Source: Candidatus Woesearchaeota archaeon
GTDB lineage: Archaea; Nanobdellota; Nanobdellia; Woesearchaeales; UBA11576
Length of the DNA: 42,195 nt
NCBI GenBank assembly: GCA_027083015.1
Contig: JALWQS010000136.1
Location: 1-42,195 of the forward strand
Direction of reading: 5' to 3'
The first letter of the stretch is position 1; each line of letters starts with the position of its first letter. The notes under the pieces were generated by a model. That model made no database searches. It saw only the letters and a program-made list of their open reading frames with translations, and was not told the DNA's origin. Shown piece by piece: positions 1 to 21,530 of this stretch. The translations under genes were made by a program, and so were the position numbers.

Positions 1-22
1 TTTGTCTTCAGGATAGGGTGTC

Positions 23-577
23 ATGTCTTTTAAGTTTCTTGCTTTTAGTCCTAGGATTATCTTTTTGGTGGTCGCGCTTTTGGCTGTTGTCATCGTTATC
101 CGTCTCATGATCAATTCTAAGTTTGAGGTTCGTGGTATCCAATCCGAGATTCTTGTTCAGGGTCTGTTGTATGGTCCTGGCGGCATTACCTATTATGATC
201 CTCTTACTGGCAGGATTTATCCTGAGATTGTTGACCCTTCACAGTTTAATGAGAGTAAGTATGATATGGGTTTTCATTTTAGTCCTAATAGTCTTATCAC
301 TGCCAGGATCCTTCTTGTTAAGGAGAAGGAGACTCTTAAGAAGCTTCATTTTGGCAAGTCTAAGAATATGATCTCTAATGTTGATCCTTCAGATGTTGTT
401 GGAGTGACTTATTTTAATAAGGAGTGGTGGGATAATTGGAAACCTTTGGCTGAGAGTAAGATCAGAGGTTTGGGGCGTGTTGATATTGATAATACTGAAC
501 TGCCTATCCTTTACCGTGATGCTGATGGCGGTCTTCACTCTGGTTGGTTGTACATTACCGTCCTTCAGCCTGGTTGA
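23..577 (+). CDS. hypothetical exported or membrane-anchored protein (184 aa)
   Basis: ATG-initiated ORF with the NNT/NNG codon style of all + strand genes here. N-terminal hydrophobic helix (IIFLVVALLAVVIVI) followed by a soluble domain. No family recognised. Confidence 0.6.
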   Translation: MSFKFLAFSPRIIFLVVALLAVVIVIRLMINSKFEVRGIQSEILVQGLLYGPGGITYYDPLTGRIYPEIVDPSQFNESKYDMGFHFSPNSLITARILLVKEKETLKKLHFGKSKNMISNVDPSDVVGVTYFNKEWWDNWKPLAESKIRGLGRVDIDNTELPILYRDADGGLHSGWLYITVLQPG

Positions 578-776
578 TCTTGATTGAAGTTTTTGGTTGG
601 TTATAGGTTATATATGTTGATCGTATGATCATGATGATATATTTGGTGTTTATGATGATTGTTGTGTCATGCTCTCGAAACAAAACCTTGGGAATGCCCG
701 TGCCTTTGGTGCGGGCTTCTTTTCCCAATATTTATTGGGTGGAGGTTTTGTCTGATCGTTTTGAAGGTATCTGACT

Positions 777-1589
777 ATGAGTAAGTATCACAAAAAGACT
801 GGTTGTAAGAAGAAGGATTGGTTAGTGAAACCTGTCGGTAAGAAGGGTTTTATAGCTGATGTTATCGTTGATTTCTGGGCATACATAACTTTTGTTCTTG
901 TGATCATTGTCTTTGCTTTTCTTTATAAGCTGGTGGCTAAGTCTTCTATGGAACGCTTGAGTGATTTTAGGGGTGTTACTTGGTCTAATCATCTTGCTAG
1001 TGTTTATCTTCGTACGCCTATTGAGATAGGTGATACTGATCTTTCTATGGCTGAGCTTATAGCTTTGTATGATTATAATCAGACTCATGAGCGTGTTAAA
1101 GAGACTAAAGCTAAGAAAGAGTCCTGGACCGATTTAGCCGCTGCTCTTAAGTCCACTAAGGAGTTGCTTATGGGCAATTCTATCCTTAAGGGTTCTAGGG
1201 GTCCTTTGGCTGATGGTCTCTTCTCGGTCACTGATGATTTTATTGAGGATAATTTTGACGCTTTTGATACTTGTTATCTTTTTTATATTAAGGGTAATGG
1301 TTTTGAGTATATGAATTGGGGTTCTTTGTCTAAGTGTAAGGCTTATGCGCGGACTCGTGCTGAACATGGAGTTTTTGGTTTTAGTGTCGTCCAGTCGGAT
1401 CTTACTATTGATAATTTCCTTCAGCTTTTGGATGATGTTCCTAAGGAGTCTTATCTGACTTACATTCCTGCTATTGATCCTAGGGAGAAACCTATTGAAT
1501 TGTATGTTGTTTATGATTTTGAGAAGATCTTGAGGCTTAAGGATCAGACCAGCATGTCTGATGATAGTGAGAGTGAAGAGTATGTTTAG
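777..1589 (+). CDS. hypothetical single-pass membrane protein (270 aa), possible class III (pilin-like) signal
   Basis: Basic N-terminus, then KKG|FIADVIVDFWAYITFVLVIIVFAFL, and an acidic C-terminal tail. The stop overlaps the next gene's ATG (ATGTTTAG at 1582-1589). No family recognised. Confidence 0.6.
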   Translation: MSKYHKKTGCKKKDWLVKPVGKKGFIADVIVDFWAYITFVLVIIVFAFLYKLVAKSSMERLSDFRGVTWSNHLASVYLRTPIEIGDTDLSMAELIALYDYNQTHERVKETKAKKESWTDLAAALKSTKELLMGNSILKGSRGPLADGLFSVTDDFIEDNFDAFDTCYLFYIKGNGFEYMNWGSLSKCKAYARTRAEHGVFGFSVVQSDLTIDNFLQLLDDVPKESYLTYIPAIDPREKPIELYVVYDFEKILRLKDQTSMSDDSESEEYV

Positions 1590-3537
1590 ACGTGTTCGTA
1601 AAAACAAGCGGGGCATGATCTTTAACATAGCGGTAGTTATCATTGTCATTATTGTCTTGACTTATGGTTATATCCGTCTCTCTTCTAAGATGGATGTTAA
1701 GCATGAGATCGGTGAGAATCCTTCTATGCTTGTCCTTAAGGTTCAGCAGGGCGAGAAAAGTCTGATCTTTGTTGATTTGGCTGCGAAACTTGCTTTGCAG
1801 CAGGCTCTTTTTGACCTTCAGGATAAGGGTGGTGTGACTTCCAGCACGCCTTGTGGAGAGTATTATGGTTTTAAGATGTGGAATTCTGATTCTGGTCAGA
1901 CCTGTTTCCTTGATAAGAAGGGTTTGGAGAAGGCTTTGCAGCAGTTGTTTGAACCTGCTCTTGTTGCCCGTCTTGCTTCTTACCCTGATGCTGATTTCTT
2001 GATCAACACTCCTCAGGCAGCCAGTATGGCTCGTCAGGTTGAGACAGGCACTCCTGCTGTAGGTCCTGGCAAGACTAATGAATATTGTTCTGCTTCTTCT
2101 GGTTTCCGTAAGGATTTTACTTTTGATGATGGTACTGGACGGTTCCCTGTTGCTGGTGCTCGTGTTTGGGTTCCTAAGGAGGCTGATTGCCCTGGTTCTT
2201 GGCCTTTGGTGGTTTTCCTTCCTGGTTGTGAGTCTGTTCCTCACCGCAGGTTTGGTGATGGTGATCCTTTTGATGTTATTGAGGTCGCTAAGAAGCTTTA
2301 CGCGTCTAAGAAGATTGTTCCTTTGATCTTTGCTTCTCCTTCCCAGACTAAATTTAAGGGTTCTAATTGTGTCGGTGATTCTCTTTTTAGTTTTCCTTTT
2401 GATATGAAGAGGTTTGTTGATGATGTGAAGAAGAATCTTCCTGAAGGGGTTTCTGTCTCTTCTGTCGCTATTGTGGGTCATTCTGCCGCTGGTTGTAGCT
2501 TGAAGGCTGGTCTGTTCGGCGCTTTCAATAAGGTTCCTGATGCGGTTGCTCTTGGCGCTCTTGATACCTGTGCTTGGCCTTCTCTTTTTGCTCAGGTCAG
2601 GTCTAAGCTTGGCTCTTCTAAGCTTCTTGTCGTCTATGGTACTGATCGTAAGGATCGTTCCAAGGTTAATGCGGTTCTTGGCGCTACTTCTCAGATGTCT
2701 TGTCCTTCTGAGACTGATTATCCTGGTGGCGAGTTTGACGAGTGTTATTCTGATGGTCATAACATCTTTACTTTTACTATGAAGAACCCTGATGATAAGC
2801 GTGCTGTTGCTGTTGGTATGGAACAGTTCCTTCTTAGGTTTTTTCCTGCTTCTTCTCCTGATGGTCTTTCTCATTCTCCTGTCGTCGGGGCTAAGGGTTG
2901 TATCTATGGTCAGAAAGTTGCTGCTTGGGGCGATTCTATTACTGCTGAAAAAGCTGGTTGGGTCAGCATGCTCAATAAGAGATGTCCTGTTATGACGTTT
3001 GAAAATCTTGGTGTTGTTGGTCGTTGGTCTCGTACTGGTCGTAAGTTGTTTGAGGAGAAGGTCTTAAGCCAGGGTTTTGATCAGGTTATAATAATGTTCG
3101 GTATGAATGATATTCTTGGTAAGAGCACTGCTGAAGCTATTGAGTCTAATCTTCAGGCGATGTATGATGCTGCTAAGGCTAAGGGTTTGCGTGTTGTTGC
3201 TATGACTGTTACTCCTGCCGGCCCTAGCAAGTATAATAAGGTCACTCCTAAGATGCAGGCTGAACTTGATAAGCTTAATGCTTGGATCCTTGCTAAGCCT
3301 GAGAATGTTGATGTTGTTGTTAATACGTGGCAGCCTCTTAATGCTGGCTCTACGACTAAAGCGGCCAATAAAGCTTATATTTATCCTGATAATATCCATC
3401 CTAATCTTAAGGGTCATAGGATCTTGGCTGATGTGATCTATAATACTGCTTTCCAGCCGGCCTTGCCTTCTCCTGGAGAGAAGAGTTTGCCTTCAGGATC
3501 TTCACCTTCATCGTCGGTAAGAGGTAATACTGTATGA
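1582..3537 (+). CDS. exported bifunctional esterase: alpha/beta-hydrolase domain + C-terminal SGNH/GDSL hydrolase domain
   Basis: N-terminal anchor RKNKRG|MIFNIAVVIIVIIVL. Nucleophile elbow G-H-S-A-A-G (Ser codon 2482-2484) after a VVFLPG strand. SGNH blocks are GDSIT (Ser codon 2935-2937), GVVG, GMND and DNIHP. The start could also be the ATG at 1561 listed in the track. I prefer 1582 because it gives the basic N-terminus MFRRVRKNKRG. Confidence 0.8.
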   Translation: MFRRVRKNKRGMIFNIAVVIIVIIVLTYGYIRLSSKMDVKHEIGENPSMLVLKVQQGEKSLIFVDLAAKLALQQALFDLQDKGGVTSSTPCGEYYGFKMWNSDSGQTCFLDKKGLEKALQQLFEPALVARLASYPDADFLINTPQAASMARQVETGTPAVGPGKTNEYCSASSGFRKDFTFDDGTGRFPVAGARVWVPKEADCPGSWPLVVFLPGCESVPHRRFGDGDPFDVIEVAKKLYASKKIVPLIFASPSQTKFKGSNCVGDSLFSFPFDMKRFVDDVKKNLPEGVSVSSVAIVGHSAAGCSLKAGLFGAFNKVPDAVALGALDTCAWPSLFAQVRSKLGSSKLLVVYGTDRKDRSKVNAVLGATSQMSCPSETDYPGGEFDECYSDGHNIFTFTMKNPDDKRAVAVGMEQFLLRFFPASSPDGLSHSPVVGAKGCIYGQKVAAWGDSITAEKAGWVSMLNKRCPVMTFENLGVVGRWSRTGRKLFEEKVLSQGFDQVIIMFGMNDILGKSTAEAIESNLQAMYDAAKAKGLRVVAMTVTPAGPSKYNKVTPKMQAELDKLNAWILAKPENVDVVVNTWQPLNAGSTTKAANKAYIYPDNIHPNLKGHRILADVIYNTAFQPALPSPGEKSLPSGSSPSSSVRGNTV

Positions 3538-5504
3538 AAGAATGCTGTATAAAAGATTTGATAAGGAGGTTGGATAAGATCGCTTTGTTTATTGATGGGA
3601 AAACTCGGAGTCCTTTGTTTTTGTTAGCTTGTCTTCTCTTGTTTGTTGCTCTTCTTTCTTTGTCTGTTCCTGTTTCTTTGGCTCAGAGTACGAAAACTTC
3701 TTCTCAGGTTTCTTCCTTGTCTTCATCTGCTGCTGCTCAAGCGGGTTCCTCTGTTTCTTCATCTGCTGCTTCCTCTCCCGGACCGTCTTCCCAGATTACT
3801 AAGTTTCGTTTTGTGGCTTGGCCTGATACTCATGTCAGTTGCGGTAAGCATGGTGTTCCTTCTCCTGCTTTGAAGGCTGTCGCTGCTACTATTGATAAGG
3901 TTAAGCCTGCTTTTGTTATCCACACTGGTGATATGATAAATATTGAAGCTCCTGATACTCGTAAGTCTCCTTGTATTGATGTTATGTGGTCTAATTTCAA
4001 GAAGTTTATCGTGACTCCTCTTTTGAATGCTAATATTCTTTTCTTTCCTACTCCTGGTAATCATGATTATCTTTGGAAGGGCAGTTCTCGTTACAAGGAT
4101 GAGTGGTCTGTTCATAAGAATAATGGTTTTAAGGTTGATGGTCCTGAAGGTTATGCTGGTTGGTATTCTTTTGATTATGGTAATTCTCATTTTATCTCTT
4201 TGGTCATCCCTGGCACTCAGGATCTTGTCGCTAAGAAGACTCAGCTTGCTTGGTTGAAGTCTGATCTTGAAGCCGCTGCTAAGAAGCATCCTCAACACAT
4301 TTTTGTCTTTGGCCATTCTCCTCTTTATTGTCCTGCTATGAATTCTAAGCGTTCTCCTTCTGAGGGTGTTTGGATCAAGGATAAGGCTTTTGTTGATCTT
4401 CTTAAGAAGTACAAGCCTGTTTATCTTTCTGGTCATATGCATATTCCTTTTGAAAAGTCTTACGAGGGTATTGATACCATAATTGATGGTATGCTTGGTG
4501 GTGGTAAGAGAAAGATTCTTGGTAGGCCTTTTGCTCCTTTTCAGTATACGGTGATTGATGTTGATGGTCCTGATTATAAGGTTTATCGCATCACTCATCC
4601 TGATTGGGACACTTCTGCTCTTCCTCCTGCTCCTGAAGTCTCTCAGGCTTCTCAGTTTTCTAGCTCTCCTGATGCTTCTCATGGTATCGGTGGTTGTCCC
4701 CCTGGTCAGGAACCTGTGTCTTCAAGGAATTTGCGTTCTCTTTTCACTGCTCCTGGAACTCAGGGCGGTGGTGTTGTTCCTGTCAGTGCTTCTGCTCAGG
4801 GTGCGGTCGTGACTGAGAATGATCCTGGTGTTTTTTGTAGTTATTGTGGTGCTCTTAAGAGCAAGGTTAATGAGATCCAACCTAATACTGATAAGAAGTG
4901 TCGTGGTCAGTGTTGTGTTGCTAAGTGTCCTCCTGGTACCAGGCTTAATAATGATGTTCCTTTGTATAAGCAGTGTTCCCCTGAGATCCGTAAGCGTGGT
5001 TGTAGCGGCGATACCTGTCGTAATGCTTGCGGTCATACGAGTTTTAAGATGATCACTGATGGTCTTGGTTTTAATATTGACATGGATGATTTTTATTGCC
5101 ATGAAAGGCATACTTATTTCTTGGGTGCTCCTGCTGGTTGGAGCGGTCTTGCTAAGGCTACTGAAAAGCTTCATCTTAAGTCTGAACGTATCCGTTCTGC
5201 TGATTGGGAGTCTGTTGTTGCTGCTCTTCAGTCTGGTAAGATAGGTATGGAGGTTATGGCTGATAAGAACCTTCCTGATTCTGTGCGTGAGCGTTGCGGT
5301 AAAGGGACTAATGGTCATTGGATCGCTCTTGTCGGTGCTTCTCCTGATTATGTCATCATAAATGATCCTGCCGGTAATTGTGGTTATGATCAGGAGCGTC
5401 ATATGGTCCTTTCTAAAGAGTATTTTCGTAGGATTGATAAGAATGGCAGGATTATTGTGTGGGAGAAGGGAGAGGGCAGTTCTGGGGGTGAGACCTTTGC
5501 TTGA
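3534..5504 (+). CDS. exported calcineurin-like metallophosphoesterase fused to a Cys-knot and a C-terminal papain-fold (C39-like) cysteine peptidase domain
   Basis: ATGA start/stop overlap with the upstream gene. Signal or anchor ending SLAQ, then a Ser-rich linker. Metallophosphoesterase motifs in canonical order: WPDTHV, HTGDMIN, GNHDY, GHSPLY, GHMHI. Cys-rich block CSYCG..KCPPG from 4836. C39-like order Cys (NACGHTS, codon 5028-5030), His (GHWIALVG, codon 5316-5318), then INDP. Confidence 0.8.
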   Translation: MKECCIKDLIRRLDKIALFIDGKTRSPLFLLACLLLFVALLSLSVPVSLAQSTKTSSQVSSLSSSAAAQAGSSVSSSAASSPGPSSQITKFRFVAWPDTHVSCGKHGVPSPALKAVAATIDKVKPAFVIHTGDMINIEAPDTRKSPCIDVMWSNFKKFIVTPLLNANILFFPTPGNHDYLWKGSSRYKDEWSVHKNNGFKVDGPEGYAGWYSFDYGNSHFISLVIPGTQDLVAKKTQLAWLKSDLEAAAKKHPQHIFVFGHSPLYCPAMNSKRSPSEGVWIKDKAFVDLLKKYKPVYLSGHMHIPFEKSYEGIDTIIDGMLGGGKRKILGRPFAPFQYTVIDVDGPDYKVYRITHPDWDTSALPPAPEVSQASQFSSSPDASHGIGGCPPGQEPVSSRNLRSLFTAPGTQGGGVVPVSASAQGAVVTENDPGVFCSYCGALKSKVNEIQPNTDKKCRGQCCVAKCPPGTRLNNDVPLYKQCSPEIRKRGCSGDTCRNACGHTSFKMITDGLGFNIDMDDFYCHERHTYFLGAPAGWSGLAKATEKLHLKSERIRSADWESVVAALQSGKIGMEVMADKNLPDSVRERCGKGTNGHWIALVGASPDYVIINDPAGNCGYDQERHMVLSKEYFRRIDKNGRIIVWEKGEGSSGGETFA

Positions 5505-6657
5505 CTTGCCTTTTAGGTTTGGTTCTCGTCTGCGTTTTTCAGTATTGCTTTTGTTCTCGCTATTGTCATTTGTAGTTCTTAGTTCGTCGGTTGCTGCTCA
5601 GTATTTTGTTGTTGAGGCTGATCCTTTTGAGTCTCACCCCAACATTATGGATCTTTATGTCAGTAAGCCTAATGTGTTTACTGAGGATCTTTTTCATGGC
5701 GGGATTCCTCAGTATGATATGTACATAGCTTTTTTTGATCGTTCTGGTAGGATGGTCGATTCTTACCAGTTGATGACTGGAACTAATGATGTTCCTTTTG
5801 ATCCTGATGTCAATACTTTCAAGGTTTTTGGTAAGGATTTTCCTGAGAAGGGCGAATCTGCTAATCTTTTGTTGGAGCATTCTGTTGAGTTCTGTAATGA
5901 TAATGGTACTTGTGATTCTTGTCAGGGTCCTGACTGTTCTTTGATCGAGAATTTTCTTTCTTGTCCTTCTGATTGTCCTTCTGGCAGTTATGATTTTTAC
6001 TGTGACTTGCAGAAAGATGGTATTTGTGATCCGGATTGTGATGGTATTGACGCTGATTGTCCTGATTGTGAGCCTTTTTGCGCTGTTGATGGTGCTTCTT
6101 GTGAGGATCTTGGCGGCACTCTTTGCAGTGCCGATGAGGATTGTGTCGGCGGTTATTTTTCTTCTGGTATCCTTGATGAGAATGATGAGCCTGTCACTGA
6201 TTGTTGTATTGGAGGTAATTGTTCCGTGACTGATCCTTTGGTTGCTTTTTGGCAGGATAAGGATGTTGAGAGTGCTTTTCCTACAGAAGCGGAGATCAGA
6301 GAGGATAATGTTTCTGTCGATAGGATTGCGGGTATTGCCCCTTCTGGAAAGAGAGCCGTTGGTTTGGGTGAGAAGTTGGGTTTGCCTGAAGAGGTGAGCA
6401 ATATCGGTATTCTTGAGATTGTTGGTGTTGGAGTTTTATTTTCTGTTCTTGTCGTTTTGCTTCTTTTCTTCTTCCATAAGAGGACTCCTCTTCATTCTTC
6501 TGATCCTGCTACTCCTGAAGGTCTTCAGCAAGAGGTTTCTTTGTTGGTGAGTAAGGGTTATGGTTATTCTGTCATTAAGAGTTTTCTTTTGAGGAAGGGT
6601 TTTGATCCTAAACTGGTTGATGAGGCTATTAAGAGGGATTATGATGCGCGTAGGTGA
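5443..6657 (+). CDS. Cys-rich type-I membrane protein, paralog A (partner of the upstream enzyme)
   Basis: Signal peptide ending VAAQ, then a beta-rich N-domain. Cys/Asp-rich module with a thrombospondin-type-3-like DPDCDGIDADCPDC motif. TM helix IGILEIVGVGVLFSVLVVLLLFFF and a about 65-aa cytoplasmic tail. The start is uncertain: ATG 5443 or GTG about 5487. The track start at 5362 lies deep inside the upstream gene. Confidence 0.7.
   Translation: MAGLLCGRRERAVLGVRPLLDLPFRFGSRLRFSVLLLFSLLSFVVLSSSVAAQYFVVEADPFESHPNIMDLYVSKPNVFTEDLFHGGIPQYDMYIAFFDRSGRMVDSYQLMTGTNDVPFDPDVNTFKVFGKDFPEKGESANLLLEHSVEFCNDNGTCDSCQGPDCSLIENFLSCPSDCPSGSYDFYCDLQKDGICDPDCDGIDADCPDCEPFCAVDGASCEDLGGTLCSADEDCVGGYFSSGILDENDEPVTDCCIGGNCSVTDPLVAFWQDKDVESAFPTEAEIREDNVSVDRIAGIAPSGKRAVGLGEKLGLPEEVSNIGILEIVGVGVLFSVLVVLLLFFFHKRTPLHSSDPATPEGLQQEVSLLVSKGYGYSVIKSFLLRKGFDPKLVDEAIKRDYDARR
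5968..6159 (+). repeat. 192-nt conserved block, copy 1 (Cys/Asp module of paralog A)
   Basis: Hand alignment to 8777-8968 gives 153/192 identical positions with no indels. It includes a near-identical run TGTCCTGATTGTGAGCCTTTTTG...GATGGTGCTTCTTGTGAGGATCTTGGCGG (6058-6116). Confidence 0.8.
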
Positions 6658-8302
6658 TTTTAGGAGGAGGAATGGCTTGAGGACTGCCAGGTTTTTTTTG
6701 CCTGTCTTATTGATTATTCTATTGTCTTTGGTGGTTCTTGGTGATGTTAATCGTGTAGCTGTTCAGCCGGCTTCTGGTTCTTCTTCGGCATCCCAGACTG
6801 GTTCTTCTCAGTCTTCTTCCCCACCTTCTTCTAGTACTGGCTCTTCCCCTCAGTGTGTTCCTATCCCTTACCGGTATGGTACTATCTCCAAGACCATCTT
6901 TGATCTTGTTCTTTCTACTGAGGGTAATAAGACTTCTATCCTTGGTATCTCTCGTGTGCCTATCGCTGTCGGTATCAAGAAGGAGATTAGGGAGTTGAAG
7001 GATGGTGTTGTCTGTAAGCCTCTTCCTGCTCAGCGTAAGATGAGTCAGGAGTTTCTTAAGAGGGTTTATGGTGATAAGCAGATGAATATTGAGCCTCAAC
7101 TGGTTGATATCACTTTTCTTTCTGGGTTTGGCAAGGCTGGTTCTGAAAAAGCTAAGAATATGGAATCCGTGAAGAAGTTTGCTTTTGGAAAGACTGATTC
7201 TATCAAGGTCCATCGTAAGGTTGCTCCTGCTTTTCAGTGTGTTGAGAAGGAGATCATGGCTTCTTGTCCTGGCTGGAATGATTATAAGATTTCTTCTCTT
7301 CAGGGTTATCTTTGGTCTCCTCTTCCTGATAATCCTGATATCTTGTCTGCTTCTAGTTTTGGTATTGCTCTTGATATCTCTTTGGATGATGGGTCTAATG
7401 TTCCTTCTTGTTGGGTTCAGGCTTTTAAGAAGTTTGGTTTTGCTTGGGGCGGCGATAATAGGGAGGTTCCTGCTTATAATCATTTTGAGTTTCTTGGTGA
7501 TCCTAATGCTATTCTTGTCGGTTCTAAACAGCAGGTTTCTTCTGCTTCAGTTGCGGCTCCTGTCTCTTCTCCGTATAGTATCAAGGCTGATGATGGGAAT
7601 ATCATGTGTTCTTATTGTGGTGATATGAAGTCTATGTTTAAGAGGTTGTACCCTGATGATAACCTTATGGATTGTGTTGGTTGGCTTGATTGCTGTCGTG
7701 GTAAGTGTCCTCCCGGCTCTTATATTAATCCTAAGGCTAAGTATTTTTCTCAGGCTGACAAGAGTAATTATCCTATGCCTGCTGAGTGTGTCAGTCAACC
7801 TGCGCCTCCTAAGAAGCAGTACACTTATGGTAATATTGGTTGTGCCGCATTTTCTTGGCGTATGGCTTTGTCTGCTTATGGTATTGATAGGTCTGCGAAG
7901 GACGTTTTTTGCGGCAAATTAAGTAATATTGCTGTCTTTCCTGCTTTTGGTGAAAGTATTAAGCGTGCTTATAAGAATGCGGGCGTTAATCTTAAGATCG
8001 TCCCTTTTGATTGGAACACTATTGTCTCTGAGGTCAAGCAGGGGCATCCTTTGATCTGGGATCTTGATGATAAGGGCTTGGCTTCTACTGATCGTTGTCC
8101 AAAGTCTCGTACCAGTCAGCATTTTATGGTCGCTGTTGGTGCTAGTGATGATTATCTTATCATAGATGATCCTGGCGGTTGGTGTGGCCATAAGTTTAGT
8201 GAGCATATGGTCCTCTCTAAGGATTATTTCCTTAACTCTGCTAAGCATAAGATCATGTATGTTATTTATCCTCCTGGTGAGCATAGTGCAGATACTATTT
8301 GA
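6641..8302 (+). CDS. exported M15/LAS-like (VanY/CwlK-type) peptidase-like domain fused to a Cys-knot and a C-terminal papain-fold (C39-like) cysteine peptidase domain
   Basis: Anchor FFLPVLLIILLSLVVLG, then a Ser-rich linker. SASSFGIALDIS and FGFAWGGDN..AYNHFEF resemble the SxHxxGxAxD and GFxWGGDW..D.xHFE blocks of M15 peptidases, with Ser at the first His position. CSYCG..KCPPG knot from 7607. Cys (GNIGCAAFSW, codon 7841-7843), His (SQHFMVAVG, codon 8120-8122), then IIDDP. Alternative starts at 6620 and 6644. Confidence 0.75.
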   Translation: MMRVGDFRRRNGLRTARFFLPVLLIILLSLVVLGDVNRVAVQPASGSSSASQTGSSQSSSPPSSSTGSSPQCVPIPYRYGTISKTIFDLVLSTEGNKTSILGISRVPIAVGIKKEIRELKDGVVCKPLPAQRKMSQEFLKRVYGDKQMNIEPQLVDITFLSGFGKAGSEKAKNMESVKKFAFGKTDSIKVHRKVAPAFQCVEKEIMASCPGWNDYKISSLQGYLWSPLPDNPDILSASSFGIALDISLDDGSNVPSCWVQAFKKFGFAWGGDNREVPAYNHFEFLGDPNAILVGSKQQVSSASVAAPVSSPYSIKADDGNIMCSYCGDMKSMFKRLYPDDNLMDCVGWLDCCRGKCPPGSYINPKAKYFSQADKSNYPMPAECVSQPAPPKKQYTYGNIGCAAFSWRMALSAYGIDRSAKDVFCGKLSNIAVFPAFGESIKRAYKNAGVNLKIVPFDWNTIVSEVKQGHPLIWDLDDKGLASTDRCPKSRTSQHFMVAVGASDDYLIIDDPGGWCGHKFSEHMVLSKDYFLNSAKHKIMYVIYPPGEHSADTI

Positions 8303-8350
8303 TGTTTGGGTGAAAGATGAAGTTAAGTATGGAAGAAAGATTGGTGTAAT

Positions 8351-9919
8351 ATGAGGTTGAAGTTGTTTGTTTGGATCTTGTATGTTTTTATTTTAGTCTT
8401 GCCTGTCGTTTTTGCTCAGGATATATTTATCTATGCTGATGGTGGGACTGATCCTTTTGCTATTTCAGGTATCAAGGTTTTGAAGGAGAATTCTTTTTAT
8501 GCTGGTGAGTATCGTTTTACTGGTGATTTTCTTGATAACTCTGTTGTTGCTTTTGATTCTGATGGTAATGTTGTTTATTCTACGCCTCAGGGTTTTCAGG
8601 TGACGACTCTCGGCTTTGATCCTCGTATCTCTTCTATAGCTATCTATAATGGTTCTTATTCTTCTTCTAAGGTTCCTGTTGTTGTCAGGAATGTTTCTTT
8701 CTGTGATAATGATGGTGTTTGTGAGCCTTGTAGTTCTTCTGATTGTGTTTCTATGGAGAGTTCTTTGACTTGCCGTTCTGATTGTCCTTCCGGTAGTTTT
8801 GATGGTTTTTGTGATCAGAAGTCTGATGGTTTTTGTGATCCTGATTGTGATGGTCAGGATATTGACTGTCCTGATTGTGAGCCTTTTTGTGTTTTTGATG
8901 GTGCTTCTTGTGAGGATCTTGGCGGTTCTCAGTGCAGTGATGGCCAGGATTGTATCGGTGGTTATTTTGTCGGCGGTCTTTTTGTTGATGGTGAGCTTGA
9001 TACTTCTTGTTGTGTGGGTGGCCGATGTGGCGACATGGAGGAGTATGTTCTGTCTCAGTACATGATTGATTATCATCCTGAAGCGGTTGATGTTCTTCCT
9101 GAGAATCCTTATAAGGGTAAGTCTTGTAAGTCGCTTGGCGGCGTGATTTGTGGTTGGGCGCAGGATTGTGACGGTACTCCTGTTTATACTTTGGATGAGG
9201 AGTCTGAGGATAATACTGATTCTGATGATGGTCCTTGTTGTATCGGTCGTTGTTATACTCCTGATGATCTTCTTGAGGGTGAGCCTGGTTACTTGGCTAA
9301 GGCTGATGCTGGTAGCGTTCCTTTGTCTGTTGTTTCTGAGCAGGATACTGTCAGGTCTGAACCTTTGAGGCGTGAGGTCTCTCCTGATTTTAACGATAGG
9401 CTTTCTCCTGAGGAGCGTGCTGCTTTGGATTCTCGTGATCTTGAGTTTTCTCCTGATGGTGATGTTTTGTTGCCTGTTGATCCTGATTCTGATCCTAAGA
9501 ACATGACTGAAGAGCTTGATTTTATCGCTCTTAAGAATGATTCTTTTGTTGCTAATGCTGAAGACGAAGTTGTTGAGGATAAGAAGGTTGAGGAAGAACA
9601 GGAACAGGAATCTTTTGAAGCGTCTGCTTTGGGTTTTGATCCTTTGAGTTTTATCCTGGCTCTTGTCGGCGTTCTTCTTTTGGTTGTTTCTTCTGTCGTT
9701 ATCTGGCGTGTGCGTGAGAAGCGCAATCCTTCTTCTGCTGTTTCTTCTAATGTGGATCTTCAGGCACATATTGATTCTTTGTTGTCTCAGGGTTTGTCTT
9801 ATGTTCAGGTCCAGAAGTCTTTGGTTGAGCGAGGTTTTGCTCCTAAACTGGTCTCTGATGAGATCAGGAAGAATTATTATACTAAGAAGCGTCTTGCTTC
9901 TCAGGGTAAAGTGGTTTGA
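8351..9919 (+). CDS. Cys-rich type-I membrane protein, paralog B (partner of the upstream enzyme)
   Basis: Signal peptide ending VFAQ. Same Cys/Asp module as paralog A (DPDCDGQDIDCPDC). An extra acidic region, TM helix LSFILALVGVLLLVVSSVVIW, and a cytoplasmic tail homologous to paralog A (RGFAPKLVSDEIRKNYY versus KGFDPKLVDEAIKRDY). Confidence 0.75.
   Translation: MRLKLFVWILYVFILVLPVVFAQDIFIYADGGTDPFAISGIKVLKENSFYAGEYRFTGDFLDNSVVAFDSDGNVVYSTPQGFQVTTLGFDPRISSIAIYNGSYSSSKVPVVVRNVSFCDNDGVCEPCSSSDCVSMESSLTCRSDCPSGSFDGFCDQKSDGFCDPDCDGQDIDCPDCEPFCVFDGASCEDLGGSQCSDGQDCIGGYFVGGLFVDGELDTSCCVGGRCGDMEEYVLSQYMIDYHPEAVDVLPENPYKGKSCKSLGGVICGWAQDCDGTPVYTLDEESEDNTDSDDGPCCIGRCYTPDDLLEGEPGYLAKADAGSVPLSVVSEQDTVRSEPLRREVSPDFNDRLSPEERAALDSRDLEFSPDGDVLLPVDPDSDPKNMTEELDFIALKNDSFVANAEDEVVEDKKVEEEQEQESFEASALGFDPLSFILALVGVLLLVVSSVVIWRVREKRNPSSAVSSNVDLQAHIDSLLSQGLSYVQVQKSLVERGFAPKLVSDEIRKNYYTKKRLASQGKVV
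8777..8968 (+). repeat. 192-nt conserved block, copy 2 (Cys/Asp module of paralog B)
   Basis: See copy 1. The near-identical run lies at 8867-8925. Confidence 0.8.
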
Positions 9920-12639
9920 TGATGATTAAGCTGATGGATGTTCGGATGGGGAACGGGTTTTTTCTCGTTAGAGGTCTTTTGGTCTTTTTCATCTTCTTGG
10001 TTTTCTTCTCTCTTCTTCCTCTTGTTTCTGCTCAGGTTGTCACTGCTGATCTTAATCCTTCTAAGTCTTCTGGTGGTGCTGTCACTGCTCTTTATTGTAA
10101 GGGTGCTGATATGTCTAAGCTTGCTGACACTTCTTTTAAGCGGTGTGCTCGTTTTATGCCTAAGGTTATGGAGTATTATAAGAAGTATGGTCTTGACCAG
10201 CTTGGTGTTGATCCTTTGCAGCTCACTACTGTGATGTTTTACGAGTCTGGTTGTCATACTCGTGAGGAGATGAAGGCTTGGCAGGATAAGTATAAAGGCA
10301 CTGGTAAGGATTTTTATCGTACTTGGCAGGGCGGTCCTTTTCAGGTTGATGATCCTTGTTGGAAGTATTATAATAAGGGTGATAAGTGTCCTACTCTTGA
10401 TATTCAGCTTGAGGAGGGTGTTAAGGAGTATAAGCAGAAGTTTACTCAGGTTAAGAAGTATGCTGAGAGTAAGGGTGTTTCTTTGAAGCCTGAAGAGATC
10501 ACTTGGTTAATCTGGTTTTCTTATAATAGGGGTATTGCTACCAGTAACCTTGCTATCCGTAACATGGCTAAGGGTATGACTATCCAACAGGCTACTGATG
10601 AGGCTTGTCAGTGTTATTATGGCACTAAGGATGGTAAGGTCGCTCCTTGTCGTCCTAAGTCTGGTTGGAATAAGTATAAGCCTTGGTGTACTCATACTGG
10701 TTCTCTTGGTATCCAGTATGCTGGTCGTCTGTGGGAGGGTTATAAGAAGAATTGTGAGAAGTTGGGCGGTTCTTTGGATTCTGGTCCCGTTTCTTTTGCT
10801 GGTTTCCAGCCGGGTGCTTCTGGTGCTGGTGTTTCTGGTTCTGCTGGTTCTTCCGGTGTTTCTCTTGGTCGTCCTTCTCGTCCTGAACATCCTGCTTTTT
10901 CTGTTCCTTTTTCTTTGGATCCTTCTTTTAAGGTCTCTCTTCCTTATGATTTTTCTGTTTATGAGAATATCACTAAGGTTTTGCCCAGGCTTGAGCATTG
11001 CCTTGCGGATATTGATTGTATCTCTCAGAATATCTCTATTATCGAGTCTGAGATGCCTGGTTTTGATTGGATGGCTAAGGAGGGCGGTAATATTCTTACT
11101 AAGGATTTGGATGTTTTTCCTGAGTGGTATAAGTGGGAGCGTTATTGTGAGCCTCCTGATCTTAATGCTTTGACTTCTTTGGCTGAAGCCATCTCTGAAT
11201 GTTTGCGTTCTCCTGAGAAGGATTGTGTCTGTAAGTATGATATTCCTATCGCTGGTGAGAAGTCTAAGTCTGCTGGCGGTCTTCTTGATCTTTTGACTAC
11301 TTTTGGTTTTTCTTCTTTTTCTGCTCCTAAGACTGAGTGGAAGAGCCGTAAGATCGCTCTTAGGAATTCTGGCGGTAATGTTGTTCTTTCTTTGAAGGAA
11401 CCTTCTGATCCTGATGTTAAGCCTCAGGTCGTTGATAATGCTCATCTTATAAGGTTGGATCATAGTTTGCAGTCGCTTTTTGCTCAGTGGTATGGTGATA
11501 AGGATGTTTTATGGTATTCTTCTGATGATAGTGGTAAGTCTTTGGATATCTTTAAGCAGGGTGCCAGGAATTTTTCTATCTTTGCTGGTGGTGAGGCTCC
11601 TTCTCAGAAGGTTTGTAAGCTTAATAATCGTATTGTCAAGTTTTGTGTTGTTAGTGATAAGAAGTTTACTGCTTATGATGCTAAGAAGAACCGTTTTGGT
11701 ATCATGAATATTGCTGTTAAGTTCGCTTATCTTTTTAAGTCTAAGATTTCTGATGTTAAGAATCTTGTTATCAGTGATGCTAAGCTCGCTCAGGATAAGG
11801 TTGTTGTTTCTTGGGATGAGATGATCTCTTCAGATGTTACCAGATATACTCTTTATGTCTCTTCTAATGTTTCTCTTAAGAAGTGGATGGAGGATAAGGA
11901 TCCTTCTGATGTTCGTTCTGAGATTGAATCTTTGCCTGATACCAGGGTTTTGGATTTTGAGGTTTCTTCTAAACAGTCTATCTTTGATCTGCGTTGGCCT
12001 CTTGTTCCTGTCTGTAATGTTTCTTCTCAGACTTGTGTTCCTGAGTTTCCTTTGATCACTAAGGTTCAGGGCGGTCCTTCTTCTGTTCAGCTTATGGATG
12101 ATACTCTTTATTATGTTGAGGCTCTTAAGAAGTATTTTGTCATTCTTCCTGATGTTAAGGATGGTGTTCCTTACACTTTTGCTATTACCGCGACTGATAC
12201 TGATGGTCAGGAGTCTCCTGTTTTTTCTTTTCCTAAGTCTTTTTCTTATTCTGCTGATGATCTTCCTCCTGCTTTACCTTCTTTCTCTGCAGGTACTGGT
12301 CCTGATGGTCTGCAATTGATCATTGATACTCCTACTATGAATCTTGATGGTTCTGATCTTAACCAGTCTGATCTTTTGTGGTATCGTGCTTATTGTTTTG
12401 ATCCTGATTCTGAGGTTATTGACTTGTCTGGTGCTTTCCCGACTTCTAATACTGTGAAGTATAAGGATGGCGATCTGTCTTCTACTTTGATGGTCAGTTA
12501 TGATGAGTGTGATCCTCATAAGAAAGGTTCTGCTTATGTTGTGGTTGTCGCTTCTGATAAGGATCGTCAGGAGTTTAAGGGTCTGCTTGATCCGTCTTTT
12601 GTCCAGAAGGTTATCATTCCTGTTTCTCGTAAGAAGTGA
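9919..12639 (+). CDS. large exported protein with an N-terminal GH23/SLT-like (lytic transglycosylase or goose-type lysozyme) domain
   Basis: The first ATG overlaps the upstream stop (TGATG); the track uses TTG at 9916. Signal peptide ending VSAQ. SLT-like motif order: MFYES (Glu codon 10243-10245), GGPFQVD (compare GLMQVD), SYNRG. A Gly/Ser linker is followed by about 600 aa of beta-rich, FN3-like sequence. Confidence 0.7.
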   Translation: MMIKLMDVRMGNGFFLVRGLLVFFIFLVFFSLLPLVSAQVVTADLNPSKSSGGAVTALYCKGADMSKLADTSFKRCARFMPKVMEYYKKYGLDQLGVDPLQLTTVMFYESGCHTREEMKAWQDKYKGTGKDFYRTWQGGPFQVDDPCWKYYNKGDKCPTLDIQLEEGVKEYKQKFTQVKKYAESKGVSLKPEEITWLIWFSYNRGIATSNLAIRNMAKGMTIQQATDEACQCYYGTKDGKVAPCRPKSGWNKYKPWCTHTGSLGIQYAGRLWEGYKKNCEKLGGSLDSGPVSFAGFQPGASGAGVSGSAGSSGVSLGRPSRPEHPAFSVPFSLDPSFKVSLPYDFSVYENITKVLPRLEHCLADIDCISQNISIIESEMPGFDWMAKEGGNILTKDLDVFPEWYKWERYCEPPDLNALTSLAEAISECLRSPEKDCVCKYDIPIAGEKSKSAGGLLDLLTTFGFSSFSAPKTEWKSRKIALRNSGGNVVLSLKEPSDPDVKPQVVDNAHLIRLDHSLQSLFAQWYGDKDVLWYSSDDSGKSLDIFKQGARNFSIFAGGEAPSQKVCKLNNRIVKFCVVSDKKFTAYDAKKNRFGIMNIAVKFAYLFKSKISDVKNLVISDAKLAQDKVVVSWDEMISSDVTRYTLYVSSNVSLKKWMEDKDPSDVRSEIESLPDTRVLDFEVSSKQSIFDLRWPLVPVCNVSSQTCVPEFPLITKVQGGPSSVQLMDDTLYYVEALKKYFVILPDVKDGVPYTFAITATDTDGQESPVFSFPKSFSYSADDLPPALPSFSAGTGPDGLQLIIDTPTMNLDGSDLNQSDLLWYRAYCFDPDSEVIDLSGAFPTSNTVKYKDGDLSSTLMVSYDECDPHKKGSAYVVVVASDKDRQEFKGLLDPSFVQKVIIPVSRKK

Positions 12640-12643
12640 GGTT

Positions 12644-14347
12644 TTATTCTTCTTTGTTTTTTCTTGATAGTTGTATCAGCAGTACGAAGAGGAATCCTGC
12701 TGCTGGTATTGTAAGTACTGGTATTGCTATGAGTTTCCATGATGTTTCTGGTTTTTCGTGTGAGAATGCTATTGTTTCTGTTTGTTTGTATGCTTCTTTG
12801 TGTTCTCCTTTCAGTTCGTACATGATCTCTTTTCCTTCGTTGAGTTCTGCGAAGTGCCATGCTACTAATGGGTCTTCTTCTATGATCTTTGGTTGTATCG
12901 TGAATGTTATCTCATTGGCGTTTTTTGCGAGTGTTTTTGGTATTTCTTCGTATATCCATACGTCTTTCATCGGTTTTTCTATGTTTATCTTGACGCTCAT
13001 TATTGTTTTTCCTTGGCTTATGTGCGATTCTTTTTTTATCTTGATCTTGTCTTTTGTTCTTCTGTAGTCTTTTAGTGCTTTTTGGAATTCGTTGTTGTTT
13101 TCTCCGTATTGGTCTTCTAATGCTTTTTTTAGCAGTAGTTCTTTTTTTTGTTCTTTTGGTGTTGGGCATCCTTCGTCTGTTTGTCCGTCGCAGTCGTCGT
13201 CCAGATAGTTTCCGCATATCTCCTCTGTCGGTCCTTTGGCGTCGCATCCTGTCCATTTTCCGTTTTGGCAGTGTTCTTTTCCTTCTCTGCATGCTCCTTT
13301 GTTTGTTCCGCATGGTCTTGTCAGCAGTTCATCCACTCTTAGGTTGCAGTTGTTGTCTTTTCCGTCGCATTTTTCTTTTGCGTTGTAGTGTATTTCTGGG
13401 TCGTTGTCGTTGCAGTCTTCTCCTGCTTGGCAGTTTATTCCGTATCCGTCGTTATCGTTGTCTATGCAGGGTCTTGTTGGCACTATTGGTTTTCCTTTTG
13501 TTTCTTCTTGTTCTTTCGGTTCTTTTTGTGCCTGTTCTTTTGTTTCTTCTTGCTCTTGTTTTATCTCTTCTGTTGTCGGTTCTGGGTATTCGCATCCTTC
13601 GTCTGTTTCTCCGTCGCAGTCATCGTCTATGTTGTTTCCGCATTGTTCTTTTTCAGGCCATACTGCTCCTGTGCATTCTCCCCATTGTCCGTTCTTGCAG
13701 GTTTGTGTTCCGTATTGGCATGCTCCTGTATCTGTTGTTCCGCATTGTTGTTCTTCTCCGTCTGTGCATGCGCATCCTTCGTCTGTTTCTCCGTTGCAGT
13801 TGTTGTCTTTTCCGTCGCAGATTTCTGGTTGTGGTGTTATTGCTGTACATCCTGTCCATGTTCCTTGTTGGCAGGTTTCTTCTCCGTACCTGCATTCTCC
13901 TGTCTCGCTTGTTCCGCATTGTCTTGTCAGTCCTTCGTCTGTCTGGTAGTTGCAGTTGTCGTCTTTTCCGTTGCATACTTCTTCTGCTCCTGGGTTGATG
14001 TTTGGGTTTTGGTCGTTGCAGTCGCTTACGAGTGTGTATCCGTCATGGTCTTCGTCTGTGCAGCTTGGGTTTGTTGCGCAGTCTGTGTCTTCGCAGTCTG
14101 TTTTTCCGTCGCAGTCGTTGTCTGTGTTGTCTCCGCAATTATTTTCTGTGTCTGGTTGGCTGCATGGGTACCACTCTGAGCATCCTCCTTCGCATAGTGT
14201 GTATCTTGTTTGTGTTCCTCCGCACCCGCAGTCTCTTATTACTGGTGTGCATTTGGGTTCGTAGTCGCATGTTTGCGCGTGTATTAGTTTTGGTATGCTT
14301 ATTAGTGATAGAATTAGTATTATTGTTATGAGTGCCTCTTTTTTCAT
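12644..14347 (-). CDS. secreted Cys-rich repeat protein (MopE-like putative metal-binding motif repeats) with a C-terminal TM anchor
   Basis: Signal peptide ending IHAQ. Repeated DCNDxNPxINPGAxExCNGKDDNCNxxTDEG modules followed by CGxxxxGxCxxGxxxCxxGxWxxC. A charged EQ/K linker and a C-terminal helix IPAAGFLFVLLIQL plus a basic tail. Uses the NNA/NNC codon style typical of - strand genes. Confidence 0.8.
   Translation of the reverse strand: MKKEALITIILILSLISIPKLIHAQTCDYEPKCTPVIRDCGCGGTQTRYTLCEGGCSEWYPCSQPDTENNCGDNTDNDCDGKTDCEDTDCATNPSCTDEDHDGYTLVSDCNDQNPNINPGAEEVCNGKDDNCNYQTDEGLTRQCGTSETGECRYGEETCQQGTWTGCTAITPQPEICDGKDNNCNGETDEGCACTDGEEQQCGTTDTGACQYGTQTCKNGQWGECTGAVWPEKEQCGNNIDDDCDGETDEGCEYPEPTTEEIKQEQEETKEQAQKEPKEQEETKGKPIVPTRPCIDNDNDGYGINCQAGEDCNDNDPEIHYNAKEKCDGKDNNCNLRVDELLTRPCGTNKGACREGKEHCQNGKWTGCDAKGPTEEICGNYLDDDCDGQTDEGCPTPKEQKKELLLKKALEDQYGENNNEFQKALKDYRRTKDKIKIKKESHISQGKTIMSVKINIEKPMKDVWIYEEIPKTLAKNANEITFTIQPKIIEEDPLVAWHFAELNEGKEIMYELKGEHKEAYKQTETIAFSHEKPETSWKLIAIPVLTIPAAGFLFVLLIQLSRKNKEE
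13150..14140 (-). repeat. in-frame tandem Cys-rich modules (coding repeat inside 12644-14347)
   Basis: At least four to five recurrences of the C-N/D-G-K/x-D-D/N-x-C-D/N-G-x-T-D-E-G-C pattern are seen in translation. Boundaries are approximate. Confidence 0.6.
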
Positions 14348-14488
14348 TTTCTTTTCTCGTTGTTTTTCTCTTTTATATTATTTGTGTAAATGTTTGTTCT
14401 TTTTGTTTTGCTTTTTTTGTTTTGTTTTTAAAGGGTTTTTCGGACTATTTAAAAAGGCCTGATTAACTACTTCAAAGTAACGAAAAAC

Positions 14489-14506: not shown

Positions 14507-14554
14507 TTCTTCTTTTACCTTTTCTATCACAATTAAACCCGGAGGGATGTAAAT

Positions 14555-15604: not shown

Positions 15605-15630
15605 GTCTTTTAATATCTTATTCTTTTATT

Positions 15631-20062: not shown

Positions 20063-20779
20063 TCAGCATTCTTTAGTAAGTTTTACTCTTAGCATCTCTG
20101 TGTATCCCATGACTACTTCTTTTGTCCCTTTGCTTATGTTCCTGTATTTTTCTACCTGTTCTTCCTTGACTACATCTTCGCACACTTCTTTGGTCGTTGG
20201 TAGCAGGGTGTTTTTTGGCATTCCTGTTTTTTCTGTATTGTTTGTGAAGTCTGCTCCTATATCGACTAATGGGTCGTATTGCGTGTCTTTCATCAATGGT
20301 ACGATCCTTGATGAGTGAGGTTCTACCAGTAGTTTCATTGGGTTTTTGCTTCTTTTGACTTCTGTTCCGTTATAATAGTCTATCTTATCCAGATATACCA
20401 TCTTTAGTTCGTCATAACCGTTATACACGGTCATCTCTCTTCTTATCCAGTTTGTTTTTCCTTCCACTAATGGCGTGTCAAGCCATTCTTTTGGTCCTAG
20501 TTTTATGAGGAATTTTCCCCATGGTATCTCTATCTCTTCGTTTTTTTCTGGATTGATGGTTTCTGTATGGCATTTCTTTTCTGTTCTTTTTTCTGTCACT
20601 GTGTATGCTTGTGTTTCTATTCTTGGCGCTACCTGTTTTATCTCTTTTAGAACTGTGGATTTTTCTTTGTTTATTGTACATTTGCCGCATCCTGTGAGGG
20701 TTAGTGATACTATCAGAAGCGCTATAAATACCAAGAACAGCCTGGATACTGTCAGAATTCTTTCTTGTCTAACCCCCAT
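20063..20779 (-). CDS. lipobox-containing exported protein (238 aa), hypothetical
   Basis: Signal peptide with lipobox LTLTG|C. It overlaps the upstream CE4 gene by 11 nt. No family recognised. Confidence 0.65.
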   Translation of the reverse strand: MGVRQERILTVSRLFLVFIALLIVSLTLTGCGKCTINKEKSTVLKEIKQVAPRIETQAYTVTEKRTEKKCHTETINPEKNEEIEIPWGKFLIKLGPKEWLDTPLVEGKTNWIRREMTVYNGYDELKMVYLDKIDYYNGTEVKRSKNPMKLLVEPHSSRIVPLMKDTQYDPLVDIGADFTNNTEKTGMPKNTLLPTTKEVCEDVVKEEQVEKYRNISKGTKEVVMGYTEMLRVKLTKEC

Positions 20780-21530
20780 GTTTCCTTATTAGCTCTGCGT
20801 GGCTTATAAAAGTTACGTTTCGCTTTTTTAAGTCTTTTATAAACTGTTGGAATCGTTCCTTTTCTTTTACTATATGGTGCGGGTGGAATACGTAGCTTTC
20901 TGTTTTTCCTTCTTTGTTCCTTAGTATTGAGAAGTATAGTGTTGGCATCTTTAGGTAATAGGTCCATATTACGTCTTCTACTGGTATTCCCATCACGCTT
21001 GATACTGGTATTTCTCCTATCTTCATGTTCTTGACTGATGGGTAGAATAGCCCTAGTCCTGAGATTATTGATGCGTCATATTGGTATCCTTCTTCTTCCA
21101 GTATCTTCAGGCTTTCTTTGTCTATCCTGTGCCATGGTGCTCTGAATCCTTTTACTTTTTGTCCTGTTTCCTTCTTTATGATCCTTGTGCATCTGCTTAT
21201 CTCTTCTCTCTTTGTTTTTTCATCTATTTTCGTCAGTTTTTTGTGGCTGTAGGTATGGCATCCTATCTCAAACCTTTTCAGTTCTTGTATCACGTCTGGA
21301 TATTCTTCTGCGTATTGTCCGGTCACGAAGAATGTCGCGTTTATCTTTTCCTCATCAAGTATCTTGACGATCTCCAGCACGCATCTTTCATCTACTGGTT
21401 CTGTGTCAAAGCTTAGAAGTATTGTTCGTTCTTTTGGTGGTTGTTTGTTCAGCGCTACCAGTAGCATGCTTGTTAGTAGTATGATGAATATTAGTCCTAT
21501 GATGTTGTGTTTTGTCATCTGTTGCATCAT
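20769..21530 (-). CDS. polysaccharide deacetylase (CE4 / NodB homology domain), membrane-anchored or exported
   Basis: N-terminal helix IIGLIFIILLTSMLLVAL. CE4 motifs in order: LSFDTE (TFDD-like), HTYSH (H-S/T-x-x-H), RAPWH (RxPY-like). AGAGGA SD before the ATG. Confidence 0.8.
   Translation of the reverse strand: MMQQMTKHNIIGLIFIILLTSMLLVALNKQPPKERTILLSFDTEPVDERCVLEIVKILDEEKINATFFVTGQYAEEYPDVIQELKRFEIGCHTYSHKKLTKIDEKTKREEISRCTRIIKKETGQKVKGFRAPWHRIDKESLKILEEEGYQYDASIISGLGLFYPSVKNMKIGEIPVSSVMGIPVEDVIWTYYLKMPTLYFSILRNKEGKTESYVFHPHHIVKEKERFQQFIKDLKKRNVTFISHAELIRKHGG

Follow-up and report, generated by a model that had tools for sequence, protein, structure and literature searches.

Contig JALWQS010000136.1 of a Candidatus Woesearchaeota archaeon (assembly GCA_027083015.1), analysed here over the whole stretch of 42,195 nucleotides (nt) that is called the window, carries on its forward strand eight co-oriented genes, g0 to g7, which form a lineage-conserved cluster (Table 1). 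All products are predicted to be exported or membrane-anchored, and the cluster probably represents a set of surface-bound or secreted hydrolases of the Woesearchaeota with bacterial peptidoglycan as the most likely substrate. Its domain content comprises a GH23-like domain (g7), two C39_2 domains with intact Cys-His-Asp residues (g3 and g5), an SGNH esterase domain (g2) and a metallophosphoesterase domain (g3). Domain searches bore out the initial annotation, made from the sequence without database comparison, in that families typical of murein hydrolases are represented in the cluster. The archaeal nature of the host, presumed there, was evident from genes for RadA, an RPA-type single-stranded DNA-binding protein, an eRF1-family protein and a TrmB regulator in the window. 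NCBI records label homologues of the cluster proteins as Nanoarchaeota archaeon, Candidatus Woesearchaeota archaeon or Candidatus Nanoarchaeia archaeon, and the Woesearchaeota belong to the DPANN group, which is the kingdom Nanobdellati of the NCBI taxonomy.

Synteny of the cluster, including g0, was found in at least eight further genomes or metagenome contigs. The loci were L002 (metagenome-assembled genome (MAG) DeMMO3_27), L003 and L004 (GCA_964590795.1), L005 (GCA_042571825.1), L007, L008 (an 868-kb contig), L010 and L011 (Woesearchaeota MAGs) and L012; L004 with L003, L005 and L007 are partial contigs. The shared gene order is g0, g1, the N-terminal domain of g2, enzyme genes, an anchor gene and g7. 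Genes for a lipoprotein, a polysaccharide deacetylase and RPA adjoin the cluster in L002, L008, L010 and L011, corresponding to 20063-22592 of the window, and in L002, L008 and L010 a RadA gene is close by as well, in agreement with the window up to 24863. From genome to genome the enzyme domains are rearranged and fused into single proteins of 1239-1891 amino acids (aa). Metallophos, DUF218, GDSL and M15-like domains are united in one 1486-aa protein in L002, Metallophos, GDSL, M15, M23 and NlpC/P60 in a 1477-aa protein in L010, and an FGE-sulfatase domain, several GDSL domains and M15 in an 1891-aa protein in L008. These fusions in relatives tie the separate genes of the window into one functional unit. 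Orthologous clusters carry M23, NlpC/P60, an intact M15 and a PF11860 muramidase, and Amidase_2 and LysM occur in the wider GH23 family. Two types of extra domain have no counterpart in the window, two FGE-sulfatase-like domains (L008, 2905-8580) and a DUF218 domain of the SanA/ElyC envelope type (L002, 177-4637).

The genes g1 to g7 (777-12639, +) are tightly packed or overlapping, and direct reading of the junctions agreed with the initial description of seven consecutive forward genes with overlapping or near-abutting ends. The extent proposed there holds for g1 to g7, but the conserved cluster begins one gene earlier, at 23-577, because g0 orthologues (40-48 % identity) are located directly upstream of g1-like genes in L007, L010, L011 and L012. 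The genes g1 and g2 overlap by 8 nt (ATGTTTAG at 1582-1589), g2 and g3 meet in ATGA at 3534-3537, ATG 6641 of g5 precedes the g4 stop at 6655-6657, a gap of 48 nt (8302 to 8351) separates g5 from g6, and g6 and g7 are joined by TGATG at 9917-9921. Around the g3 stop at 5502-5504, g4 has three start candidates: ATG 5443, which gives an overlap of 62 nt with g3, TTG 5497 and TTG 5506. The N-termini of orthologues and a Shine-Dalgarno-like GGGGGTGA just upstream make one of the two TTG codons the more likely start, and the junction is tight whichever start holds. A similar gene packing is present in relatives of the cluster. The hairpin with T-run between g0 and g1 was the strongest terminator-like site within 1-14500; it may be a terminator and, as such, mark the start of a g1-g7 transcription unit.

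A hydropathy scan detected one N-terminal hydrophobic segment in every product, as expected from the signal peptides or N-terminal anchors first read from the translations, and g4 and g6 have a C-terminal transmembrane segment in addition. Class III (prepilin-type) signals were considered for the KKG/KRG-hydrophobic N-termini of g1 and g2 and rejected on a reading by eye, neither of them fitting a strict FlaFind-type pattern. The anchored protein g1 had no match in Pfam or NCBIfam, and the NCBIfam search gave no useful names for the cluster proteins. The g1 orthologue in L007 is 49 % identical, and a fusion protein of L008 combines a g1-homologous module with an N-acetylmuramidase domain (PF11860, 8e-34).

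The glycan-cleaving domain proposed for g7 escaped standard searches. As a single sequence or as a 3-sequence profile its GH23 region had no relevant match in Pfam or PDB. A search of 1.84 billion representatives with a g7-family profile yielded 87 relatives. Among 59 relatives scanned, 21 matched Pfam SLT (PF01464, best 8.6e-11) and 8 Lysozyme_like; further domains in this set were M23, Amidase_2, VanY, NlpC/P60, M15_4, Glucosaminidase and, in one distant member, LysM. The profile of the 59 relatives matched goose lysozyme (E=9e-5), MltC (7e-4) and also FN3 domains, and in the same alignment YES, GGPFQVD and SYNRG of g7 fall on the catalytic E-S, GLMQVD and AYNAG motifs. E109-S110, G138-G139-x-x-Q142-V-D and S201-Y-N-R-G205 are invariant in g7 and its three closest homologues; among the 59 family members E109, G139, Q142 and Y202-N-R-G205 vary little or not at all. 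The domain is rich in cysteines, about ten of them conserved. An AlphaFold2 model of the N-terminal domain reached a pLDDT of 68.8. Its top Foldseek matches in PDB and BFVD were g-type lysozymes, MltE/MltF and phage endolysins or lytic transglycosylases (LTs), none at E<=0.001 and with TM scores of 0.3-0.5. The family profile and the relatives matching SLT thus provide transitive evidence on which the domain is accepted as a predicted GH23 domain; the initial assignment stands by way of the family, but Pfam and PDB searches miss g7 itself.

Two of the enzyme domains in g2 and g3 were assigned directly. The SGNH domain of g2 matched PF13472 (3.2e-20, 73.8 bits, cut-off 32.9) and solved GDSL acylhydrolases in the PDB (3e-8), with GDSIT, FGMND and DNIHP aligned to the GDS, GxND and DxxH blocks, so this esterase was identified correctly from its motifs. 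The nearest structures are generic putative acylhydrolases and GDSL-like or SGNH hydrolases, followed more weakly by acetyl xylan esterases; no peptidoglycan O-acetylesterase is named among the nearest solved structures. Likewise, the calcineurin-like, binuclear metallophosphoesterase of g3 was secured by PF00149 (3.9e-14, 54 bits, cut-off 21.5) and by five metal-binding motifs readable in the translation, DTH, GDMIN, GNHD, GHSP and GHMH. Purple acid phosphatases are the nearest solved structures (E=4e-4), and a specific tie to wall phosphodiesters, the substrates suggested at first, was not found.

The N-terminal domain of g2, read initially as an alpha/beta hydrolase from the motif GHSAAG, remains an unproven candidate for this fold. 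Five sequences share three conserved motifs, the elbow-like GHS(A/G)AG, HG and DTC, and a short profile match to the esterase 3doh was obtained (E=0.002), but Pfam gave no match and the sole conserved candidate position for a catalytic His is Asp in the window protein. Foldseek returned only generic alpha/beta proteins for an AlphaFold2 model built from two sequences; with a pLDDT of 44 for this model the matches are meaningless.

The two papain-fold C39-like domains noted earlier scored above the PF13529 gathering cut-off of 24, with 34.5 bits (3.7e-8) for g3 and 32.7 bits (1.3e-7) for g5. C88, H181 and D197 are invariant in four sequences, and a profile of these domains found no solved relative by sequence. 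Bacteriocin-processing C39 peptidases proper were ruled out, as g3 and g5 lack an ABC transporter domain and the domains are C-terminal and extracellular.

In g5 the C39-like domain is preceded by a domain that has lost the metal site of its family. The part matched by Pfam (nt 7343-7489) reached 23.9 bits with PF13539 (6.3e-5), below the cut-off of 25, and the orthologous domain of L002 reached 36.8 bits; together the two scores argue for homology to M15. The positions of the zinc ligands (H-x6-D...H) were fixed by alignment to Ply500 (2vo9). They are occupied by S/D/H in g5 and in the copy P0005, by S/N/Q in P0006, G/N/H in L002, N/D/H in L010, S/N/Y in L011 and A/E/I in a second copy of the window (28373-31123, -). 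The intact triad H/D/H was present only in L008, thus six copies besides that of g5 are degenerate. Of the M15/LAS-like peptidase blocks recognised at the outset the homology to M15 was retained, but the g5 domain stays below the Pfam cut-off and its first zinc-binding His is replaced by Ser. With a metal ligand lost, the domain is probably not a peptidase; perhaps catalysis was lost and the fold retained as a binding module. Across orthologues, Cys, His and Asp of the C39-like domains and the GH23 motifs are conserved, but the M15 zinc ligands are not. Every degenerate copy within the cluster precedes another peptidase-type domain, which is C39-like in the window, P0005, P0006 and L011 and M23 plus NlpC/P60 in L010; in L002 a Cys...His region was read by eye only. 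The L008 protein with the intact triad has no other peptidase domain. Retention of a dead M15 domain ahead of interchangeable active peptidase domains (C39-like, M23, NlpC/P60) may be of wider interest.

The proteins g4 and g6 are paralogues, and orthologues of this family occur in every syntenic locus. Their genes alternate with enzyme genes, each coming after a gene with a C39-like domain, and the g6 orthologue immediately precedes that of g7 in L002, L008, L010, L011 and L012. The extracellular module of the family has about 20 invariant cysteines, many Asp residues and faint TSP3-like matches; an acidic linker precedes the transmembrane segment. The tails (6480-6657 and 9740-9919) share about 45 conserved residues of the pattern LQxxIxxLxSQGYxYxQI...KGxDPxxVDxEIxKxY, for which matches were obtained to a designed three-helix miniprotein (E=1.7e-5) and, at E=0.005, to the CBL UBA domain. 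Archaeal type I membrane proteins would here bear a UBA-like module on their inner side. Being Cys-rich membrane proteins of a new family whose cytoplasmic tails are UBA-like, g4 and g6 may also be of interest beyond this cluster.

A joint action of these proteins on murein can be proposed. The GH23 domain of g7 would cut the glycan strands, and the C39-like domains of g3 and g5 would act as endopeptidases on stem peptides or cross-links, a role suggested by M23, NlpC/P60 or an intact M15 in the same slot of sister genomes. Devoid of its zinc ligand, the M15-like domain would serve as a non-catalytic, possibly peptide-binding module ahead of the active peptidase. Acyl groups that hinder glycan cleavage, e.g. 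O-acetyl groups, may be stripped by the SGNH esterase, the phosphoesterase may free phosphate from wall-linked or released organophosphates, and g4 and g6 may keep the enzymes in place or in order on the surface of the archaeon. The purpose would be to open, grip or digest a bacterial wall, be it that of a partner, of prey or of a dead cell, and in this way to feed an organism with little biosynthetic capacity. Export and murein-type domains speak for the toolkit aimed at the wall of a partner or prey that was suggested initially, with attack, harvest and attachment alike compatible with the sequence.

Several observations weigh against peptidoglycan as the substrate. On its own g7 has no significant match in Pfam, PDB or Foldseek, the M15-like domain of g5 is degenerate, and a Pfam scan of g1-g7 recognised no cell-wall-binding domain (LysM, SH3, PG_binding). 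The families SGNH, Metallophos and C39_2 are broad and lack specificity for murein, and some GH23 members act on chitin-like glycans. The same observations on broad families, wall-binding domains and M15 degeneration, together with the closeness of the phosphoesterase to the phosphate-scavenging purple acid phosphatases, would fit a general extracellular scavenging in which glycoproteins, chitin-like glycans and organophosphates are digested without a specific tie to murein. We regard this as unlikely, given that the GH23 catalytic motifs are conserved and that murein-specific families repeatedly fill the same slots in orthologous clusters.

The enzymes could instead be directed to the archaeon itself and remodel, like autolysins, the polymer or glycoprotein layer of its own surface as the cell grows and divides. 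Vertical inheritance and the fixed chromosomal position by RPA and RadA resemble a core function more than a patchy weapon, and anchors with cytoplasmic tails next to a membrane-bound deacetylase would suit envelope maintenance. Such a self-directed role is quite unlikely nevertheless: murein-like walls are unknown in archaea outside the Methanobacteria and Methanopyri (see also PMC12352652), the 42-kb window contains no wall-synthesis gene, and M23, NlpC/P60 and the PF11860 muramidase of orthologous clusters are murein-specific in bacteria. It is highly improbable that an archaeal host, e.g. a methanogen, is targeted at its pseudomurein or other envelope. An association of Woesearchaeota with methanogens has been proposed (mentioned in PMC9723730), and the C39-like domains share the Cys-His-Asp chemistry with the Pei enzymes. 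A link to Pei-type pseudomurein peptidases, raised in the initial annotation, was not recovered, as none of the seven proteins matched Peptidase_C71 at E<=0.1. This missing C71 signal and the resistance of the beta-1,3 talosaminuronic linkages to lysozyme-type enzymes argue against pseudomurein, and the accessory domains of relatives are murein types. The M23, NlpC/P60, intact M15 and PF11860 domains of relatives favour bacterial murein.

Beyond bacterial peptidoglycan as the probable substrate, a more far-reaching proposal is a lineage-defining host-interaction apparatus rather than a loose collection of enzymes, in which secreted hydrolases are paired gene by gene with Cys-rich membrane anchors, UBA-like tails couple the outside to the interior and dead M15 domains grip stem peptides, the whole being a surface machine that opens the wall for attachment to and feeding on a bacterial host. 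This is doubtful at present. If true, it would mean cross-domain episymbiosis with bacterial hosts, which to our knowledge has yet to be demonstrated for any DPANN archaeon.

Table 1 Features of the cluster and its surroundings (aa, amino acids; nt, nucleotide positions in the window)
Feature	Position	Strand	Description	Basis or remark
g0	23..577	+	184 aa, N-terminal transmembrane segment (aa 12-30), no known domain	first conserved gene of the cluster
Hairpin	696..716	+	GC-rich hairpin, then T-run	between g0 and g1; 9 pairs, 7 G-C
g1	777..1589	+	270 aa, N-terminal anchor, transmembrane segment aa 29-47	no known domain
g2	1582..3537	+	N-terminal anchor, conserved ~400-aa domain (nt ~1700-2900), SGNH/GDSL esterase (nt 2926-3423)	PF13472
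g3	3534..5504	+	signal peptide, calcineurin-like metallophosphoesterase (nt 3810-4448), Cys-rich linker, C39_2 papain-like domain (nt 4953-5372)	PF00149, PF13529
g4	5443..6657	+	type I membrane protein: signal peptide, small N-domain, Cys/Asp-rich module, transmembrane segment, UBA-like cytoplasmic tail	family alignment
g5	6641..8302	+	signal peptide, Ser-rich linker, degenerate M15/LAS-like domain, Cys-rich linker, C39_2 domain (nt 7805-8173)	PF13539, PF13529
g6	8351..9919	+	second anchor-type Cys-rich membrane protein with UBA-like tail	family alignment, hydropathy
g7	9919..12639	+	signal peptide, predicted divergent GH23 domain (nt ~10081-10773), ~600-aa conserved C-terminal region with FN3-like part	family profile
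MopE-type protein	12644-14347	-	Cys-rich exported protein, 5 MopE-type metal-binding repeats, C-terminal transmembrane segment	also beside g7 in L003
349-aa protein	14555-15604		lipobox-like Cys	in inserted block
1300-aa protein	15631-19533	-	Cys-rich, N-terminus KKAQ-ITMFMLLG... resembling archaeal prepilin-type signal	in inserted block
Regulator	19530-19988	-	winged-helix regulator	in inserted block
h12 and h13	20063..21530	-	lipoprotein-like protein (238 aa) and membrane-anchored polysaccharide deacetylase	PF01522 at 3.9e-29
Three tandem genes	25052-28270	-	324, 312 and 384 aa, lipobox-like N-termini LLAGC, ITTGC, LITGC	no Pfam match
916-aa protein	28373-31123	-	charged coiled-coil-like N-part, transmembrane segment aa 340-358, C-terminal M15-like domain	second dead M15 in same genome

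Downstream of g7 the block 12644-20063 is an insertion relative to the syntenic loci L002, L008, L010 and L011. In these four loci the pair h12/h13 adjoins the g7 orthologue, and a functional link of the pair to the cluster is possible. The three tandem genes at 25052-28270 probably encode paralogous surface lipoproteins, judged from their weak mutual similarity (23-29 % identity in tblastn). Genes for acetate kinase (-), an AMP-forming acyl-CoA synthetase (+) and phosphotransacetylase (-) are located together at 34033-38200; the Ack-Pta pair is of bacterial type, although the organism belongs to the DPANN archaea.

A viral or prophage origin of the cluster found no support, the scan of viral contigs for the GH23 domain revealing no relative. 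A profile scan of genome contigs gave only L002 again, and a metagenome scan with the g5 alignment found nothing. A contig from the European Nucleotide Archive (P0018, ERZ27297709) encodes a 1215-aa protein of the g7 family with M23 and GH23-like domains, again beside an RPA gene. Upstream are two DNA methyltransferase genes and genes for ORF6N, PDDEXK and GIY-YIG proteins; a mobile element or virus may have inserted at the same locus.

The base composition of the window is extremely asymmetric, with 40.6 % T, 18.6 % A, 22.2 % G and 18.6 % C on the forward strand. At third codon positions forward genes have a T fraction of about 0.60 and an A fraction of about 0.05, reverse genes about 0.57 A and 0.07 T; the bias thus follows the DNA strand and not the gene orientation. 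It does not switch within 1-42195. The bias is absent in the closest relatives L003 and L004 and weaker in L008 (AT skew -0.28, GC skew +0.23). A whole-genome disparity of G and C, not of A and T, is known in Microgenomates of the candidate phyla radiation (PMC7143001).

It is still open whether bacteria instead of archaea serve as hosts for any DPANN archaeon (PMC8204110). Conserved, exported and syntenic, the cluster offers concrete proteins to express and to localise. It includes a GH23 domain overlooked by standard annotation. Surveys that use Pfam with single sequences or that require recognised wall-binding domains would under-count archaeal wall hydrolases. The idea of exported wall hydrolases put forward at the outset was partly supported, but it is not new (PMC8204110, PMC9723730, PMC12352652). 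The concept having been published before, what the cluster adds is detail and testability. For the conserved cluster architecture, the anchor family and the degenerate M15 pattern, no description was found in searches limited to open-access text.

Degenerate, non-catalytic peptidoglycan hydrolase domains are known from the dLytM factors EnvC and NlpD. They resemble the M15-like domain of g5 in a wall-hydrolase fold that lacks the metal ligands and is kept beside, or works with, active hydrolases. The fold is here M15/LAS and not M23, and a binding or regulatory role would have to be assumed for g5. With goose-type lysozyme (153l), MltC (4c5f) and MltE the g7 domain shares the aligned Glu-Ser, GxMQVD and (A/S)YNxG motifs, and lysozyme-like structures were the top, though non-significant, Foldseek matches. 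In contrast to goose-type lysozyme and family 1 LTs, g7 is very divergent, Cys-rich and fused to a conserved C-terminal region of about 600 aa.

A large archaeal protein of this kind was reportedly first noted by Castelle in 2015, in AR20. Extracellular murein-degrading proteins of Woesearchaeota and Pacearchaeota have been published by Castelle 2021 (PMC8204110), Vigneron 2022 (PMC9723730) and Strock 2025 (PMC12352652). According to the first study, proteins of fam00969 may bind or degrade bacterial walls, and some of these archaea are perhaps episymbionts of bacteria (PMC8204110); the second reported GH23 genes in Woesearchaeota MAGs and proposed a 'vampiristic' lifestyle (PMC9723730). The proteins of both studies agree with g7 in archaeal lineage, in being large exported GH23/SLT-like proteins and in the suggested binding or degradation of bacterial walls with possible episymbiosis or predation. 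They were described as single proteins by annotation, whereas the GH23 protein is here the last gene of a conserved multi-gene cluster. Modular peptidoglycan hydrolases (PGHs) occur in about 5 % of archaeal genomes and are prominent in Nanoarchaeota; bacterial killing was demonstrated for halobacterial M23 enzymes (PMC12352652). That survey demanded a recognised wall-binding domain, and the distribution of its PGHs was patchy and plasmid-enriched (PMC12352652). Secreted PGH-type catalytic domains in archaea, richness in Nanoarchaeota and domain shuffling are common to these PGHs, e.g. the M23-PG_binding_1 proteins of Halogranum, and to the cluster. Without a recognised wall-binding domain g1-g7 fall outside the modular PGH definition of Strock 2025, and in contrast to those patchy, plasmid-enriched PGHs the cluster is chromosomal and syntenic across the lineage.

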